Below, piece by piece: positions 30,525 through 40,013 of a stretch of DNA of 64,000 nt. Under the pieces are notes generated by a model, which was not told the origin of the DNA, did not search any database, and saw only the letters and a program-made list of their open reading frames with translations. Each line of letters begins with the position of its first letter. The first letter of the stretch is position 1. Both the position numbers and the translations under genes were made by a program. The stretch comes from Escherichia phage EP01: the sequence record OM135583.1, one strand, 5' to 3'.

Positions 30525-31103
30525 TTAATTACCACGGGCTGCATTAGCAACGGCATAAGCGTACTGAACATTAGCGTCCTTAAACGTACCTTTAGAGGTA
30601 TCTATTTCTGCCTTAAAGCCGCCTTTAGCCATAACATCGGCAAATTCTTTACGGAAAGCCATTGCATCAAGACCTTTCCATGATGATTTGTGCTTGGCGA
30701 ATTCAAGACCAGCGTAGTTGACAGCCTTAGCTAATTTATTATCAATGACCCATTTACCGGCTTTAGGCACAAACTTCGGACCTTTTTGTTTAGAGAACAG
30801 TTTTAAATTCCAGCGACGAAGATCACTGTCGGCTTTAACAAAAGCTGCGTCTAAGTTACTAGCAACAACATCTTCAATATGAGCAAATTTAAGTCCGTCA
30901 ACTTCAATATTTAGATCGTTACGCCAGCGAAGTCCTTCCCAAGCGAAAGCTTTAAAGTCAGAAGCTTTTGTGGCTAGATATCGTTCAAGTGGAGCAGTTT
31001 TAGGGTCAAAGCCGTTTCCGCCACGATAAGTCCACTCATCTTTATTAATGCCTTTGGCCTTTACTACAGAAGCTTCAGCAATAAATTCTTGATACGTTTT
31101 CAT
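30525..31103 (-). CDS. ipIII: Internal head protein with capsid-targeting sequence (IPIII-like)
   Basis: 192 aa; N-terminal MKTYQEFIAEA capsid-targeting sequence; size and position next to e match T4 ipIII. Confidence 0.7.
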   Translation of the reverse strand: MKTYQEFIAEASVVKAKGINKDEWTYRGGNGFDPKTAPLERYLATKASDFKAFAWEGLRWRNDLNIEVDGLKFAHIEDVVASNLDAAFVKADSDLRRWNLKLFSKQKGPKFVPKAGKWVIDNKLAKAVNYAGLEFAKHKSSWKGLDAMAFRKEFADVMAKGGFKAEIDTSKGTFKDANVQYAYAVANAARGN

Positions 31104-35221: not shown

Positions 35222-35539
35222 TTATTTCATATTATTGAAATATTCTTCTGCGATTTCATCGTTATCGTGGTAAACTTTAGAAGACAGTTTAACATAACCT
35301 TCAGCAGTGAACATATTAATCACAACTTTTACAGTATACCACTGACCGTCTTCATTACCCATTACTGCGTAAGTTTCAAACATCGGATGGTCAGGACCGA
35401 TGACTTTAATATCATTCACTGTACGACCGAAATCTTCTGAAACGCATTTCATAAAGAAGTTGAACAGTTCGCCGTAATTATCCATTTCATTCTCCAAGTT
35501 GTTTTTCTGTATCAGTAGTTGATAGTTGTATAGTACCAT
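35222..35539 (-). CDS. Hypothetical protein
   Basis: 105 aa; early promoter directly upstream. Confidence 0.6.
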   Translation of the reverse strand: MVLYNYQLLIQKNNLENEMDNYGELFNFFMKCVSEDFGRTVNDIKVIGPDHPMFETYAVMGNEDGQWYTVKVVINMFTAEGYVKLSSKVYHDNDEIAEEYFNNMK

Positions 35540-35550
35540 GGAAGAACGGG
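35519..35550 (-). promoter_or_regulatory. T4-type early promoter (cassette)
   Basis: GTTTAC (35549-35544), 18 bp, TACTAT (35525-35520). Confidence 0.6.
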
Positions 35551-35694
35551 GATGTAAACAGTTTTGTGAAAAAAATTTTTTAAAAAGTTTTAGGGAATTC
35601 TAGGACAGGGAGGGGCAATTAAAGGATAGGATAATATATTATAAAGGGTAGAAACTAAATGATTCTTAGAGAGGTCCAGAAAGGCCTAGATACC

Positions 35695-35719
35695 AAAAAG
35701 CCCTATCATTTAGATAGGG
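35695..35719 (-). terminator. Rho-independent terminator after internal-protein-like gene
   Basis: Minus strand CCCTATC-loop-GATAGGG followed by TTTTT. Confidence 0.55.
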
Positions 35720-35727
35720 ATTTAAAA

Positions 35728-36291
35728 TTATTTATCTAGTTTAGCTATTATAGCTTCTGCGGCAGCTTTTAGTTTAGATGCGGTGTTAATACGATTTTTA
35801 ATTTCAGTATACGCATCGCCAAGAACGTCAAGGCTATCAGAATAAACGCTTACACTATTGCGTTCGCTATTTGAAATAGAACCTTTAGTTTTACGATCAA
35901 AATCGATGTACACGTCTTGAAGATCACGGGCTGCCTTCTTTGCATCATCCAATGCATCAAGAGCTTTATTCAAAGCATTAACGTATTTTTTAGTGTCGAA
36001 CATATTCTTAGAAATTTTAACAGGCGCACGTTCAGGAGTAGCTAAGGCAGATTTAGGAACCTGAGCGCCAGATGCCAGTTTCTTAGAAATTTTGAAAAAT
36101 GCTTTATTGAATTTATTTTCTTGACTCATCGTAAAAGAACTATTATCAATGTTATACATTTCAATAGCTTTAGCTTTCCACTTAAGAAAATCGCCACGGT
36201 CTTTTGGGTCCAATTGGAAGAATACTTTAGTAAGTTCTGCTTCAGATGGTAATTTTGCTGCTTCGGTTAAAAATTCGGCATAAGTTTTCAT
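35728..36291 (-). CDS. Internal-protein-like gene with capsid-targeting sequence
   Basis: 187 aa; N-terminal MKTYAEFLTEAAK capsid-targeting-like sequence; hairpin terminator just downstream. Confidence 0.65.
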   Translation of the reverse strand: MKTYAEFLTEAAKLPSEAELTKVFFQLDPKDRGDFLKWKAKAIEMYNIDNSSFTMSQENKFNKAFFKISKKLASGAQVPKSALATPERAPVKISKNMFDTKKYVNALNKALDALDDAKKAARDLQDVYIDFDRKTKGSISNSERNSVSVYSDSLDVLGDAYTEIKNRINTASKLKAAAEAIIAKLDK

Positions 36292-36381
36292 TTAAAATCC
36301 TTGAAATAATCTATCGGTTGGTTATTAATTATTTATTACTTTGTTATTATCCGTAACAGCGTTATCCGAGTGATTCAAACT

Positions 36382-36408
36382 AAAAAGCCCCAACCTTTCG
36401 GTCGGGGC
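36382..36408 (-). terminator. Rho-independent terminator ending the tRNA/small-RNA transcription unit
   Basis: Minus strand GCCCCGACC-GAAA-GGTTGGGGC stem/tetraloop followed by TTTTT. Confidence 0.7.
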
Positions 36409-36412
36409 TAAG

Positions 36413-36725
36413 CCTTGCGGCAACCTTGTCGGGGTTCCACCTGCTAAGGCAAGTGTTTGTACGAAACGCCGGGATTCGAACCCGGTTATTAAGCAGTTGA
36501 CGCTACTTAATATTTTTAAAAGGCCATATCTCGACCATATCCGAACGTTCCGTCAAAAACGCTACTCGGCTTACGGCAAAGATATTTCCTCGAATCGATA
36601 ATTCGGTGCGCCGTTTCTGCTGTGATGTAAGAGGGCATCAACAAATCATAAAGATTTATTAACACAATTCCTTACCCAGGGAACATCAGTCCGACGACTT
36701 ACCGGTAGCGACCCGGTTTCTTGTT
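36413..36725 (-). ncRNA. Candidate small stable RNA(s) (T4 rnaC/rnaD-like) downstream of tRNA-Arg
   Basis: ~310 bp with no ORF, GC-richer than surroundings, contains tRNA-like T-arm (CCGGGTTCGAATCCCGG on minus strand, ~36462-36485) and ends at strong terminator. Confidence 0.35.
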
Positions 36726-36802
36726 TGGTCGAGGCAGAAGGATTCTAACCTTCAACCAACGGATTAGAAATCCGTTGCTCTATACAATTGAGCTATGCCT
36801 CG
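36726..36802 (-). tRNA. tRNA-Arg (anticodon UCU), CCA encoded
   Basis: Hand-folded cloverleaf: acceptor CGAGGCA/TGCCTCG, anticodon loop TTTCTAA, T-loop; 5' end overlaps stop of segB ORF. Confidence 0.8.
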
Positions 36803-37470
36803 TAGTTAAAATTCATTTTTCGACCTTTAAACCATCCTTCTGGAATTGGGTCAGTTTTCTTAATACGTTTAGAAACTTTTTCATCTAATGAATGAATCCA
36901 CATCATACCAAATTGGGAATTCTTTTCACCTTGTTGGTGTTTATTTCTGGCGTGAGATTCTTTCATTTTATTAATAGTTTCAGGAGTATGGGTCTTACCC
37001 AAGAAAGATTTAGTATTTAAAAATTTCTCTCTATACTTAGGATTATCCCAAAGCTGTTTAAACCTTTCTGAACCCATTTTACGGTATTTTTCTTTAAGGT
37101 CTGGGTCGTTCTCAAATCTGATTTTAAAAGCGGCAGCTCCTTTTAAGGAAGCTTCTTTCTTTTTATCCAAATATTCTTTAGTGTTTAAATGGCCCCAACC
37201 ACCTTCACCACCTAATTTCAAATTATAAACATCAGGGCGCTTTAAAAACTCTTCAGTCACAATATTCTTTTCTGACTCAAACATAGAGGTTTTATCGTCA
37301 AAGAACTCTAATATTTCTTTAGAAAAATTTTCTATACCATACTTGTCTTGGGCTCTTTTTAATAATTTACCAGAACCCATATATCCATCATCTAAATTTT
37401 CGGTAGAATGAGCGCCTATATAGATTTTATTATTAATTTTATTTGTTATTTTATAAATGTAATGGAACAT
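36793..37470 (-). CDS. segB: GIY-YIG homing endonuclease (SegB-like) inside tRNA cluster
   Basis: 225 aa; N-terminal YIYKITNKINNKIYIGAHS GIY-YIG motif; located between tRNA-Ile and tRNA-Arg. Confidence 0.85.
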   Translation of the reverse strand: MFHYIYKITNKINNKIYIGAHSTENLDDGYMGSGKLLKRAQDKYGIENFSKEILEFFDDKTSMFESEKNIVTEEFLKRPDVYNLKLGGEGGWGHLNTKEYLDKKKEASLKGAAAFKIRFENDPDLKEKYRKMGSERFKQLWDNPKYREKFLNTKSFLGKTHTPETINKMKESHARNKHQQGEKNSQFGMMWIHSLDEKVSKRIKKTDPIPEGWFKGRKMNFNYEA

Positions 37471-37511
37471 AAATATCTCCTATTTCTAAGAGTATTTATG
37501 CTCCCAAAATA

Positions 37512-37583
37512 TGGCCCTGGGTGGAATTGAACCACCATCTGGCGATTATGAGTCGCTTGCTTGAACCTTCCAGCTACAGGGCC
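37512..37583 (-). tRNA. tRNA with CAU anticodon (T4 tRNA-Ile-like; Met not excluded)
   Basis: Hand-folded: acceptor GGCCCTG/CAGGGCC, anticodon loop CTCATAA, T-arm GGTGGTTCAATTCCACC. Confidence 0.75.
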
Positions 37584-37589
37584 TTGATA

Positions 37590-37662
37590 TGCTGATTGAC
37601 GGAATCGAACCGCCGACGTCCTCATTACAAGTGAGTTGCTCTACCTACTGAGCTAAATCAGC
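37590..37662 (-). tRNA. tRNA-Thr (UGU)
   Basis: Acceptor GCTGATT/AATCAGC, anticodon loop CTTGTAA, T-loop GGTTCGATTCC. Confidence 0.8.
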
Positions 37663-37669
37663 GAAATTA

Positions 37670-37756
37670 CGGAGGCGATAGGATTTGAACCTATGAGTCG
37701 CCGGAGCGACTGCCGGTTTTCAAGACCGGTGCATTAAACCACTCTGCCACGCCTCC
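37670..37756 (-). tRNA. tRNA-Ser (UGA), long variable arm
   Basis: Acceptor GGAGGCG/CGCCTCC, anticodon loop CTTGAAA, long variable arm, T-loop GGTTCAAATCC. Confidence 0.8.
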
Positions 37757-37758
37757 AG

Positions 37759-37832
37759 TCTCCGCGGCAGGATTTGAACCTGCGACATTCTGCTCCCAAA
37801 GCAGACGCTCTACCAAACTGAGCTACACGGAG
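37759..37832 (-). tRNA. tRNA-Pro (UGG)
   Basis: Acceptor CTCCGTG/CGCGGAG, anticodon loop TTTGGGA, T-loop GGTTCAAATCC. Confidence 0.8.
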
Positions 37833-37844
37833 TAAATTAAATTT

Positions 37845-37916
<72 letters not shown>

Positions 37917-37922
37917 AAACTT

Positions 37923-38009
37923 TGGTACGAGAAGTGGGACTCGAACCCACAAGGAAATCATTCCGCAGCATTTTAAGTGCTGTGCCTTTACCAATTTGAC
38001 CATTCTCGC
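37923..38009 (-). tRNA. tRNA-Leu (UAA), long variable arm, CCA encoded
   Basis: Acceptor GCGAGAA/TTCTCGT, anticodon loop CTTAAAA, T-loop GGTTCGAGTCC, ACCA 3' end. Confidence 0.8.
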
Positions 38010-38010
38010 G

Positions 38011-38083
38011 CTGGGAATAAAGGACTCGAACCTTTGCATCCTGGAATCAAAATCCAGTGCCTTACCAACTTGGCTAATTCCCA
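38011..38083 (-). tRNA. tRNA-Gln (UUG)
   Basis: Acceptor TGGGAAT/ATTCCCA, anticodon loop TTTTGAT, T-loop GGTTCGAGTCC; tRNA order Gln-Leu-Gly-Pro-Ser-Thr-Ile...Arg matches T4. Confidence 0.8.
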
Positions 38084-38714: not shown

Positions 38715-38939
38715 TTATTCCGCTCCAGCAGCTTTCAAAAGCTTTTTAAGATTAGCAGTGCCACGAGCAGAAAACGTGACTTTACCATCCTTTTCACTAA
38801 TAGAGCCAGTTAACTTAGAAAGTTTATCGCTAGGAATTTTTTTAAAATCACTTAATGTACCATCAAAAGTTTTCGTAACAATTGGTAGTTCATCTTCATG
38901 TCTTTTAGCTTCAGCGATAAATTTTTGATAAGTTTTCAT
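38715..38939 (-). CDS. Internal-protein-like gene with capsid-targeting sequence (cassette 1)
   Basis: 74 aa; MKTYQKFIAEA N-terminus; own promoter cassette. Confidence 0.7.
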   Translation of the reverse strand: MKTYQKFIAEAKRHEDELPIVTKTFDGTLSDFKKIPSDKLSKLTGSISEKDGKVTFSARGTANLKKLLKAAGAE

Positions 38940-38966
38940 TTTATTCTCCTCAGTAGTTGATAGGGT

Positions 38967-38998
38967 AATAATATCACTACCCTATCTAAAAGTAAACG
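38967..38998 (-). promoter_or_regulatory. Early promoter, internal-protein cassette
   Basis: GTTTAC (38997-38992), 18 bp, TATTAT (38973-38968). Confidence 0.6.
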
Positions 38999-39007
38999 GT
39001 TTATAAA

Positions 39008-39316
39008 CTATTTTATTCCGCGTGATGCAATTGTGTTCTGCCGTTTAGCACCAGTTTGTTTAAAGTCATGATTGTCGATTTGATCGGTACGAGCAACTCC
39101 GAATGATGATTTGATTTTAGCTTTAGATCCTTTAGTTATAGAAATAAACATCTCGGAAGCCCCTTTCTTAAAGTCCGAGGCGATTACTTCAACGCCGTTC
39201 TTAGCAAGTGACCTCAGAATTGCTTCCGCATACTCATCATCAAGACCCGCTTGAGTATAAATAATGAATGTCTTTGGTGCAGCCGCTTCATTGATAAATT
39301 CTTGGTAAGTTTTCAT
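39008..39316 (-). CDS. Internal-protein-like gene with capsid-targeting sequence (cassette 2)
   Basis: 102 aa; MKTYQEFINEAA N-terminus. Confidence 0.7.
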   Translation of the reverse strand: MKTYQEFINEAAAPKTFIIYTQAGLDDEYAEAILRSLAKNGVEVIASDFKKGASEMFISITKGSKAKIKSSFGVARTDQIDNHDFKQTGAKRQNTIASRGIK

Positions 39317-39345
39317 TTTATTTTCCTAATTAATTTTGATAAGGT

Positions 39346-39377
39346 AATAGTACCACAACCCTATTTAAAAGTAAACT
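39346..39377 (-). promoter_or_regulatory. Early promoter, internal-protein cassette
   Basis: GTTTAC (39376-39371), 18 bp, TACTAT (39352-39347). Confidence 0.6.
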
Positions 39378-39649
39378 CATTTTAAATAAATTGCGTATTT
39401 TTTATAACCCGCTGACTCATGACGAAGACCCTTATCATTAGCAAAACGCTCAATGTTGTTAATTTGATTCTGGTCAAGTTCAGAGATGTCAAACACGAAA
39501 TAGTTACGTTTGTTACCAACTGTTACATAGTCAGTTAAATCAATACCATATAGGTAATTGATGTTATCAATCATAGTCTTGACAGCTTTGCTAATTTTTA
39601 CTTTTTCGTTAAAAGTAGCTTCATTGATAAATTCTTTAAATGTTTTCAT
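39377..39649 (-). CDS. Internal-protein-like gene with capsid-targeting sequence (cassette 3)
   Basis: 90 aa; MKTFKEFINEAT N-terminus. Confidence 0.7.
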   Translation of the reverse strand: MKTFKEFINEATFNEKVKISKAVKTMIDNINYLYGIDLTDYVTVGNKRNYFVFDISELDQNQINNIERFANDKGLRHESAGYKKYAIYLK

Positions 39650-39676
39650 TTTATTCTCCTCAGTAGTTGATAGGGT

Positions 39677-39708
39677 AATAGTATCACAACTAAAACCCTA
39701 TGTAAACA
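39677..39708 (-). promoter_or_regulatory. Early promoter, internal-protein cassette
   Basis: GTTTAC (39707-39702), 18 bp, TACTAT (39683-39678). Confidence 0.6.
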
Positions 39709-39725
39709 ACTTTGTGAAATATTTA

Positions 39726-40013
39726 TTACAAAAGATTTTTAGCAATAATCTTGAGATGTGCCGCAGAAATGTGTTTAGCTTTAAACAACGCAGTTTCTTC
39801 AGCAGGAGAGATAATGATTGTAGCACCATCCTTTTTAGCAGACCACCCATCACCTAGGTAAACAGTACCTTTGATTTCTTCGCCATCAACCAAACTAATC
39901 ATTGGTTTACCTTCTCGTCCTTTATTTGCTTTAATAACTTCAGAAGTAAGAGTAGCTTCAGTAATAGTAGAAACCGGGATAGTTGTAGAAGTAAATTCTT
40001 TGAAAGTTTTCAT
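39726..40013 (-). CDS. Internal-protein-like gene with capsid-targeting sequence (cassette 4; ipI position)
   Basis: 95 aa (T4 IPI precursor length), MKTFKEFTSTT N-terminus, adjacent to 57B as ipI is in T4; sequence identity with T4 IPI not verified. Confidence 0.65.
   Translation of the reverse strand: MKTFKEFTSTTIPVSTITEATLTSEVIKANKGREGKPMISLVDGEEIKGTVYLGDGWSAKKDGATIIISPAEETALFKAKHISAAHLKIIAKNLL

Follow-up and report, generated by a model that had tools for sequence, protein, structure and literature searches.

The 64,000-nt stretch of Escherichia phage EP01 DNA analysed here (sequence record OM135583.1; hereafter, the window) carries a gene for a 187-residue protein that, judging from its sequence, probably represents an internal head protein like those of T4, dispensable to the phage. 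Its gene would be transcribed late, its product would be targeted to the prohead by a capsid-targeting sequence (CTS) and processed by the protease gp21, and its location would represent a third ip-type locus.

The ORF (Table 1) is intact, starts with ATG, and its translation begins MKTYAEFLTEAAKLPSEAEL. It is a real gene under purifying selection, with a dN/dS of 0.09–0.11 relative to the allele of Shigella phage CT01 (dS of 0.15). The window belongs to a Tequatrovirus, and its closest record is Escherichia phage ECO07P1 (99.9% over 1 kb). The ORF is present in 164 of the 684 phage records that match this 1-kb region, at an identity of 83–100% (at least 95% in 163 records). Every database name we saw for it is “hypothetical protein”, and PHROGs places it in phrog_2280, a family of unknown function.

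The gene order of the window is T4-like. It runs from ipIII and an ipII-like gene through e, nudE and e.2–e.8 to the 187-aa ORF, continues with an rnaC/rnaD region, tRNA-Arg, segB, seven tRNAs and trna.2-like genes, and ends with four ip-type genes followed by 57B. An earlier note, made from the sequence of the window, had placed the gene next to the tRNA cluster, and this location holds: eight tRNA genes (36726–38083) lie on the same (−) strand as the ORF, separated from it by the rnaC/rnaD-type region. The gene is thus situated between the rnaC terminator and e.8, with the tRNA cluster between it and the ipI locus, and is outside both classical ip loci (the denV–e region and the 57B–tRNA region). 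Location at a classical ip locus is a habit of the internal protein class and not a part of its mechanism.

Table 1 Features of the 187-aa gene and its surroundings in the window.
Feature	Coordinates	Strand	Basis or source
187-aa CDS including stop codon	35728..36291	−	phrog_2280; “hypothetical” in every record seen
Codons 1–10, MKTYAEFLTE, CTS-type leader; predicted gp21 cut after E10 (between LTE and A)	36262..36291	−	CTS determinants, PMC9026906; Alt sites, PMC5694885
Residues 13–75, predicted N-terminal helical domain, the part of the body common to all family members	36067..36255	−	AlphaFold2 with alignment, block pLDDT ~67–81
Residues 76–98, predicted disordered linker	35998..36066	−	AlphaFold2, alignments
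Residues 99–187, predicted C-terminal antiparallel helical hairpin, variable domain	35731..35997	−	AlphaFold2, alignments
AATAAATA, T4 late-promoter motif, commonest variant (A at −13), 46 nt 5′ of ATG	36330..36337	−	PMC2988020
AAGGA, Shine-Dalgarno-like, 7–11 nt 5′ of ATG	36298..36302	−	Direct sequence reading
Intrinsic terminator hairpin, 10-bp stem and T run, closes the tRNA/rnaD/rnaC unit upstream of the gene	36386..36409	−	Also in T4
Intrinsic terminator hairpin, 7-bp stem and T run, 9 nt past the stop codon	35701..35719	−	
AAAAAGCCC, lower copy of the 9-bp direct repeat (terminator tail) bounding the 687-bp unit	35695..35703		
AAAAAGCCC, upper copy of the 9-bp direct repeat (terminator tail)	36382..36390		

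Two features of the neighbouring RNA genes were observed in passing. The interval 36386–36720 (−) is homologous to T4 rnaC/rnaD, which encode the stable species 1 and 2 RNAs, and matches no Rfam family at the gathering threshold; the eight tRNAs are the only RNAs reported. A 225-aa ORF (36793–37470, −) lies between tRNA-Arg and tRNA-Met, where T4 has segB, which encodes a GIY-YIG homing endonuclease. ECO07P1 carries tRNA-Asn and tRNA-Tyr in its place, which shows that the tRNA cluster is itself polymorphic.

A CTS-type leader with a predicted gp21 site

The protein begins with MKTYAEFLTE followed by AAK. In T4 IPIII, the first ten residues are enough for packaging, and positions 4 and 7 weigh most in targeting while positions 8 and 10 weigh most in processing (PMC9026906). 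The leader of the 187-aa protein is identical to that of IPIII in seven of ten residues, including Y4, F7 and E10, and matches the CTS type at all ten positions. Position 8 is a leucine where IPIII has an isoleucine, a replacement that still fits the [L/I]-x-E rule for gp21 sites. The CTS-type start claimed in the earlier note was therefore confirmed. Mass spectrometry has identified LTE-619 and ITE-6 as gp21 sites of T4 Alt (PMC5694885), and the leader of the 187-aa protein ends in the former tripeptide, a motif match by which cleavage is predicted. A search for gp21 sites, which the earlier note had suggested, thus returned LTE at residue 10 and, at the level of the motif, an [LI]xE at this place in all homologs inspected (see below). 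As this is the sole [LI]xE in the protein, the 177-residue mature part should survive maturation intact.

The similarity to other CTS-bearing proteins is confined to the N-terminus but is not trivially short. In BLASTP comparisons with the six other CTS genes of the window, every best alignment was N-terminal: identity was 63–75% over residues 1–11 or 1–12 with ipIII, ip102 and ip90, and the alignments with the remaining three were longer and weaker. When the first ten residues were removed from all proteins, BLASTP found no match among the CTS genes of the window better than E ~1, and an hhalign comparison of the family profile with IPIII aligned the first 26 residues and nothing beyond. This bears out the statement that the rest of the protein is unrelated to the ipIII- and ipII-like genes. 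The same note had named, as grounds for discarding its proposal, a similarity limited to the first 4–5 residues and imposed by a conserved cassette start. The match reaches ~12 residues and covers Y4, F7, L8 and E10, so the similarity extends past the first 4–5 residues, and the upstream sequences differ.

When the 64-kb window was translated in six frames, a relaxed CTS pattern appeared five times, invariably where a (−) strand ORF begins. Its chance of occurrence, roughly estimated from residue frequencies, is ~1e-8 per ORF start. Four tandem CTS genes (74, 102, 90 and 95 aa) fill the ipI locus (38715–40013, −). Each is preceded by a near-identical early-promoter/RBS cassette with GTTTAC, a −10 element of the TAcTATT type, and gaggagaataaaATG or aggaaaataaaATG; no late motif is present within 60 nt of the ATG of any of the four. 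The sequence upstream of the 187-aa gene is unrelated to these cassettes. A leader imposed by a shared recombination cassette was considered and rejected, because the upstream sequence differs from that of the ip cassettes and the leader is kept at the protein level among homologs that are 20% identical.

A late promoter motif and two terminators frame the gene

The T4 late promoter has the sequence TATAAATA, and an A at its first position, A(−13), is found in 9 of 50 listed T4 late promoters (PMC2988020). The motif upstream of the 187-aa gene is of this A(−13) variety. ATAAATA occurs 21 times on the two strands of the 64-kb window, and the chance of finding the late motif in the span before the gene is ~0.002. 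In the window, several further [TA]ATAAATA sites stand before presumed late genes, such as that for lysozyme e, identified by synteny with T4, and those for gp53 and gp4, as their N-termini suggest.

Two terminators bracket the gene. No sigma-70-type promoter was found in the stretch from the upstream terminator to the ATG, and the next one (35558..35530) belongs to e.8. The late motif in this setting suggests that the gene is transcribed late, at the time of prohead assembly.

These data bear on the reading that the ORF is simply one of the accessory genes of the e.1–e.8 block, with early or middle expression, or a spurious or decaying ORF, whose N-terminal match is fortuitous. The hyperplastic region in which it resides is full of small genes without known function, and the RB69 copy is frameshifted. 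Against this, there is a terminator directly upstream and no sigma-70-type promoter before the gene, dN/dS is ~0.1, the late motif recurs at every homologous locus described below, and the leader pattern, at ~1e-8 per ORF start, is found elsewhere in the window at ip genes only. We regard this reading as very improbable and as nearly excluded.

A syntenic family across the Tevenvirinae

A phmmer search of 1.84 billion representative sequences identified a 204-aa relative (P0013) with 32% identity, and tblastn with this protein as a bridge retrieved 350 phage records. Homologs with 20–45% identity, all of them members of phrog_2280, fill the same slot in at least eight other genera; this slot directly follows the last tRNA gene and precedes the e.8/e.6 homologs. 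The slot is occupied in RB69 and JS09 (Mosigvirus), IME08 (Dhakavirus), KMB19 (Karamvirus; placed from tRNA distances), Marfa (Marfavirus), Kosakonia phage 305 (Kanagawavirus), EcS1 (Kagamiyamavirus) and KP185 (Jiaodavirus).

We examined 23 loci from nine genera: 14 were taken from IMG/VR and eight from GenBank or Logan, and the remaining one is that of the window. In all 23, (i) an [LI]xE ends at residue 10 (residue 9 in the Jiaodavirus protein, which is one residue shorter), (ii) the protein has an aromatic residue at position 4, hydrophobic residues at positions 7 (F or I) and 8, and Glu at position 10, and (iii) nATAAATA is located 33–46 nt before the ATG. The late motif takes the form TATAAATA in ten loci, AATAAATA in four, GATAAATA in seven and CATAAATA in two; 13 of the 23 loci thus have another base (A, C or G) where the first T would be. 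A same-strand tRNA gene is present within 1.4 kb upstream in 22 of the 23 loci. Many homologs have a second site 5–8 residues further on, as in MLNFKEFIAE SDSDMITE followed by AG, which would give a propeptide of 15–18 residues; the range stated for T4 internal proteins is 10–19 residues (PMC9026906). In alleles other than that of the window, the [LI]xE sites past the one at the leader number 0–3, and their positions are not conserved.

The leader is the best conserved segment of the protein. Between the window and IME08, it is identical in eight of ten residues, while the N-domain is 20% and the C-domain 17% identical. Better conservation of the leader than of the body argues that the leader is not a remnant of an old recombination event. 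This is pertinent to the reading in which the protein is made late but stays in the cytoplasm, unpackaged, and its CTS-like N-terminus is a non-functional relic of ip ancestry or recombination. Such a relic would be in line with the departure of the leader from MKTY in several genera (MLNF, MLKF, MYTF, MKF), with the annotation of the gene as “hypothetical” everywhere, and with the missing proteomic support among the listed rows for ValerieMcCarty04 virions (see below). A non-functional leader should have decayed; instead, it is the part best kept, while the body has fallen to ~20% identity, and the residue pattern at positions 4, 7, 8 and 10 is retained in 23 of 23 loci. Furthermore, the sequence 5′ of the ATG is unlike that of the ip cassettes, so that recent cassette recombination is no explanation. 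We consider a relic leader rather improbable.

By sequence and synteny, the 187-aa gene is the Tequatrovirus allele of a conserved Tevenvirinae family that is absent from T2, T4 and T6. The earlier note had placed the gene off the classical ip loci, which stood; the gene is no solitary addition but one member of this family.

Besides the family, the phmmer search of 1.84 billion representatives returned weak matches to an fn3 protein and to P0014 only. The latter, an 869-aa metagenomic protein, consists of five tandem repeats of ~127 residues, each of which resembles residues 3–65 of the 187-aa protein (33% identity; E of 1e-5 in a single comparison), and contains no informative Pfam domain.

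Presence and absence among T-even phages

In T4, e.8 and rnaC are separated by a 285-bp gap that contains no ORF. In an alignment, T4 displays a single copy of GGGGCTTTTT directly followed by GGTATCTA at the exact junction. At this point in the window, the rnaC terminator is followed by a 687-bp unit and by another terminator, which ends in GGGCTTTTT and adjoins GGTATCTA. The 9-bp repeat AAAAAGCCC starts at 35695 and 36382 in the window and is present as one copy in T4. T2 and T6 also lack the gene, and RB14 carries it as RB14ORF136. Patchy presence among close relatives is, as expected, the pattern of accessory ip genes.

Recent insertion of the unit as a moron was considered and rejected, since synteny in nine genera makes loss from T2, T4 and T6 more parsimonious. 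The comparison thus argues that the gene probably occupied this site ancestrally and disappeared from the T2, T4 and T6 lineages.

Several variants of the locus were seen in relatives. Between rnaC and the 187-aa gene, many of them possess a second paralog from phrog_2280 (for example, in Shigella phage SF2-1, positions 2416–2890 of locus L003), which is split over two frames: a 97-aa ORF (MKSYAQFLNE followed by AVL), comprising the N-domain and linker, overlaps an 89-aa ORF that resembles a C-domain of the Karamvirus type. This paralog could be a frameshifted pseudogene or a genuine two-ORF arrangement. RB69 is a Mosigvirus, but its RB69ORF149c/148c (L005, 5001–5563) corresponds to the Tequatrovirus allele in frameshifted form, with near-identity up to residue ~120; JS09, another Mosigvirus, has a divergent allele at the same site, which points to allele replacement between genera. 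The CT01 allele (L016, 1201–1689) has an in-frame deletion of 25 residues of the linker between two KISK repeats and retains both domains. A 118-aa metagenomic protein with 13 member sequences (P0011) is a chimera of residues 97–122 of the 187-aa protein and the C-terminal part of NudE, joined at a shared AAR, which suggests that natural deletion variants without the whole e.8–e.2 block exist.

Domain architecture and virion proteome evidence

Family members consist of the leader, a helical N-domain of ~60 residues, a linker, and a C-terminal helical hairpin of ~90 residues, as predicted by AlphaFold2 and alignments. The pLDDT of the AlphaFold2 models was 62 without an alignment and 66 with an alignment of 17 sequences. 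With the family alignment, block means were ~67–81 for the N-domain and 64–75 for the hairpin, and the linker and leader were unstructured. The linker is short in the allele of the window, long and rich in Pro, Ala and Lys in most other genera, and deleted in frame in CT01. Jiaodavirus alleles are 66% identical to those of Karamvirus and Marfavirus in the N-domain and 6–13% in the C-domain. Judged by sequence identity, the Jiaodavirus C-terminal domain is unrelated, and the C-domain is modular. The Tequatrovirus, Mosigvirus/Dhakavirus/Karamvirus and Jiaodavirus types represent at least three unrelated or barely related versions of it.

The predicted mature protein has 177 residues, a mass of 19.7 kDa, a pI of 9.46, 26 Lys, 6 Arg and no Cys (20.2 kDa, pI of 9.65, 24 Lys and 8 Arg for the IPIII of the window), and the pI is 9.5–9.9 across family members. 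In T4 heads, it is the lysines of the internal proteins that contact DNA (PMC3012670). Searches of Pfam, NCBIfam, PADLOC, PDB sequences and a fold library yielded no informative match and no relative with a solved structure. The sub-threshold matches were those of cytochrome b562 to the C-terminal helices and a weak TonB-spacer match to the JS09 linker.

The earlier note had also proposed virion proteomics. CsCl-purified virions of two Jiaodaviruses, ValerieMcCarty03 and ValerieMcCarty04, have been analysed by LC-MS/MS (PMC13119998), and ValerieMcCarty04 carries an ortholog (VMC04_131, WKM80661.1) that is absent from its sister ValerieMcCarty03. For this Jiaodavirus ortholog, whose virion proteome was the one that could be mapped, the listed rows of the ValerieMcCarty04 virion table contain neither an entry for WKM80661.1 nor any tryptic peptide expected from it (PMC13119998). 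The table is in accession order, and its listed rows extend beyond WKM80661.1 and include neighbouring accession numbers. The IPI-like protein WKM80648.1 is represented by high-scoring peptides in the same virions; the number of spectra for the IPI-like protein was 1 in one of the two sister phages and 26 in the other (PMC13119998). The missing peptides are evidence against abundant packaging of this distant ortholog, which we weight lightly considering (i) its different C-domain, (ii) the limitation of the check to the listed rows of the table, and (iii) the erratic detection of internal proteins.

A literature search found no virion proteome of a phage that carries the allele of the window. 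The fPS-65/fPS-90 paper and the p000v papers contain no proteome, ph0021 was analysed by SDS-PAGE only, and the ECLFM1 report gives bands without usable identities. A proteome of phiR1-RT is published, but no homolog was found in the tRNA region of this phage. Petrov et al. (2010) do not mention internal proteins.

The proteomic result would also suit a different fate of the protein, namely that of a late-made accessory of the prohead core or of assembly, which the leader targets to the prohead and which is then degraded or expelled at maturation, so that it is absent from virions and is not injected. The T4 prohead core proteins gp22, gp67 and gp68 are degraded or expelled in this manner. The leader, its cleavage site and the late motif are equally expected of such a protein, the long C-terminal helical hairpin, as modelled, is scaffold-like, and the conservation and synteny of the family between genera contrast with the high polymorphism of the classical internal proteins. 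The gp22/gp67/gp68 class, however, has multiple internal gp21 sites, whereas the allele of the window has a single [LI]xE, at the leader, and no obvious internal ones. Furthermore, T2, T4 and T6 build heads without the gene, and the basic, lysine-rich composition suits DNA-associated internal proteins. We thus consider it unlikely that the protein is such a core accessory.

Discussion

Combining these observations, we favour an internal head protein that would act as follows. The gene, isolated between two terminators, would have a gp55-type promoter of its own (AATAAATA at −46) and be transcribed late. The leader MKTYAEFLTE would carry the precursor into the prohead core, where gp21 would cut it off after LTE10 to expose the predicted new N-terminus AAKLPSEAELTK. 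The basic, lysine-rich mature protein would remain in the head with the DNA and enter the cell along with it. Late transcription, targeting, cleavage, retention and ejection are all put forward here on the strength of sequence features, and the suggestion of the earlier note that the gene encodes a further injected internal protein away from the classical ip loci holds at this level: the leader, the LTE site, the late motif and the basic, lysine-rich body are all in place. Against this reading stand the missing peptides of the Jiaodavirus ortholog, the replaced first T of the late motif in 13 of the 23 loci, the position off both classical ip loci with an upstream region unlike that of the ipI-locus cassettes, and the outcome of the structure and family searches, which offered no hint of function. 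The locus, the conservation across genera, the modular architecture of the N- and C-domains, and the absence from T2, T4 and T6 are new; the proposed mechanism is the established CTS pathway.

The closest known counterpart is IPIII (ipIII, window 30525..31103). The two proteins share a ten-residue MKTYxEF[IL]xE leader with a terminal [IL]xE site of the gp21 type. Both are dispensable and occur in some T-even relatives but not in others, and their mature size, pI and Lys, Arg and Ala content are nearly equal, with no Cys in either, although these are bulk properties only. Unlike IPIII, which is encoded in the denV–e region, the 187-aa protein is encoded at the tRNA/rnaC–e.8 junction, displays no similarity to IPIII past residue ~12 (BLASTP) or ~26 (hhalign), and has a predicted fold of two helical domains and a disordered linker. 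Packaging of IPIII and its inhibition of GmrSD(ECOR17) have been demonstrated (PMC12373910), whereas packaging of the 187-aa protein is a prediction from its sequence.

The T4 ipI gene and the genes of the ipI locus (38715..40013 in the window), too, have CTS-type leaders on otherwise unrelated small proteins and undergo gain, loss and allele replacement between close relatives; polymorphic ip genes of this locus, Ip4–Ip10, were reportedly described by Repoila et al. in 1994. They are, however, shorter (74–102 aa in the window versus 187 aa), each has the shared early-promoter/RBS cassette in place of a late motif and an unrelated upstream sequence, and they are shuffled, whereas the 187-aa family is syntenic over at least nine genera.

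T4 Alt is a head-packaged 70-kDa ADP-ribosyltransferase with an ART fold that is encoded off the ip loci and enters the cell together with the DNA. Its N-terminal propeptide is removed by gp21 at ITE-6, and it also uses LTE-619 (PMC5694885). The 187-aa protein resembles Alt in having a short N-terminal leader with a (here predicted) gp21-type site and a gene away from the ip loci, but lacks an enzymatic signature.

The layout of the locus is reminiscent of the PeSL or moron-type cassettes of T4-type hyperplastic regions, which are defined by a strong early sigma-70-type promoter (Arbiol et al. 2010, PMC2839356). It is likewise a self-contained promoter–ORF–terminator unit bounded by G/C-rich stem-loops, and it is precisely missing in T4 at a 9-bp repeat derived from terminator tails (GGGCTTTTT). 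Unlike in PeSL cassettes, its promoter motif is of the late type with no sigma-70-type early promoter, and its synteny across genera argues for an ancestral gene as opposed to a recent insertion.

In an infected cell, internal proteins act before any other phage protein. The targets of T4 Ip1, Ip2 and Ip3 are three different GmrSD type IV restriction enzymes, one specifically blocked by each, and the three proteins are unrelated to one another (PMC12373910). Given these activities, and a conserved N-domain combined with a swappable C-domain, our preferred guess by analogy is that the 187-aa protein may serve after injection as an early-acting anti-defence or DNA-protecting effector; in BLASTP and hhalign comparisons it has no sequence or fold kinship to IPI*, IPII or IPIII past the leader. 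A bolder proposal, which we put forward tentatively as a possibility, is that the family forms a third conserved class of injected T-even protein, composed of a delivery module and a swappable effector. Packaging and ejection would be the task of the conserved leader and N-domain together with the flexible Pro/Ala/Lys linker, while the C-terminal helical domain would be swapped between lineages against different host defences. If this is true, T4-like phages own a general injected anti-defence platform that was overlooked as T2, T4 and T6 had lost it.

The literature on GmrSD inhibition speaks of two ip loci (PMC12373910), and a third with a conserved family would add candidate injected counter-defence proteins. 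The practical gain is modest at this stage, that of a candidate packaged protein. Hundreds of sequenced T4-like phages that infect Escherichia, Shigella, Yersinia, Klebsiella, Enterobacter or Kosakonia, many of them under consideration for therapeutic use, carry a member of the family, and the 687-bp unit may help explain differences in host range between near-identical phages. Reliance on T2, T4 and T6 has left this widespread gene family unnamed.
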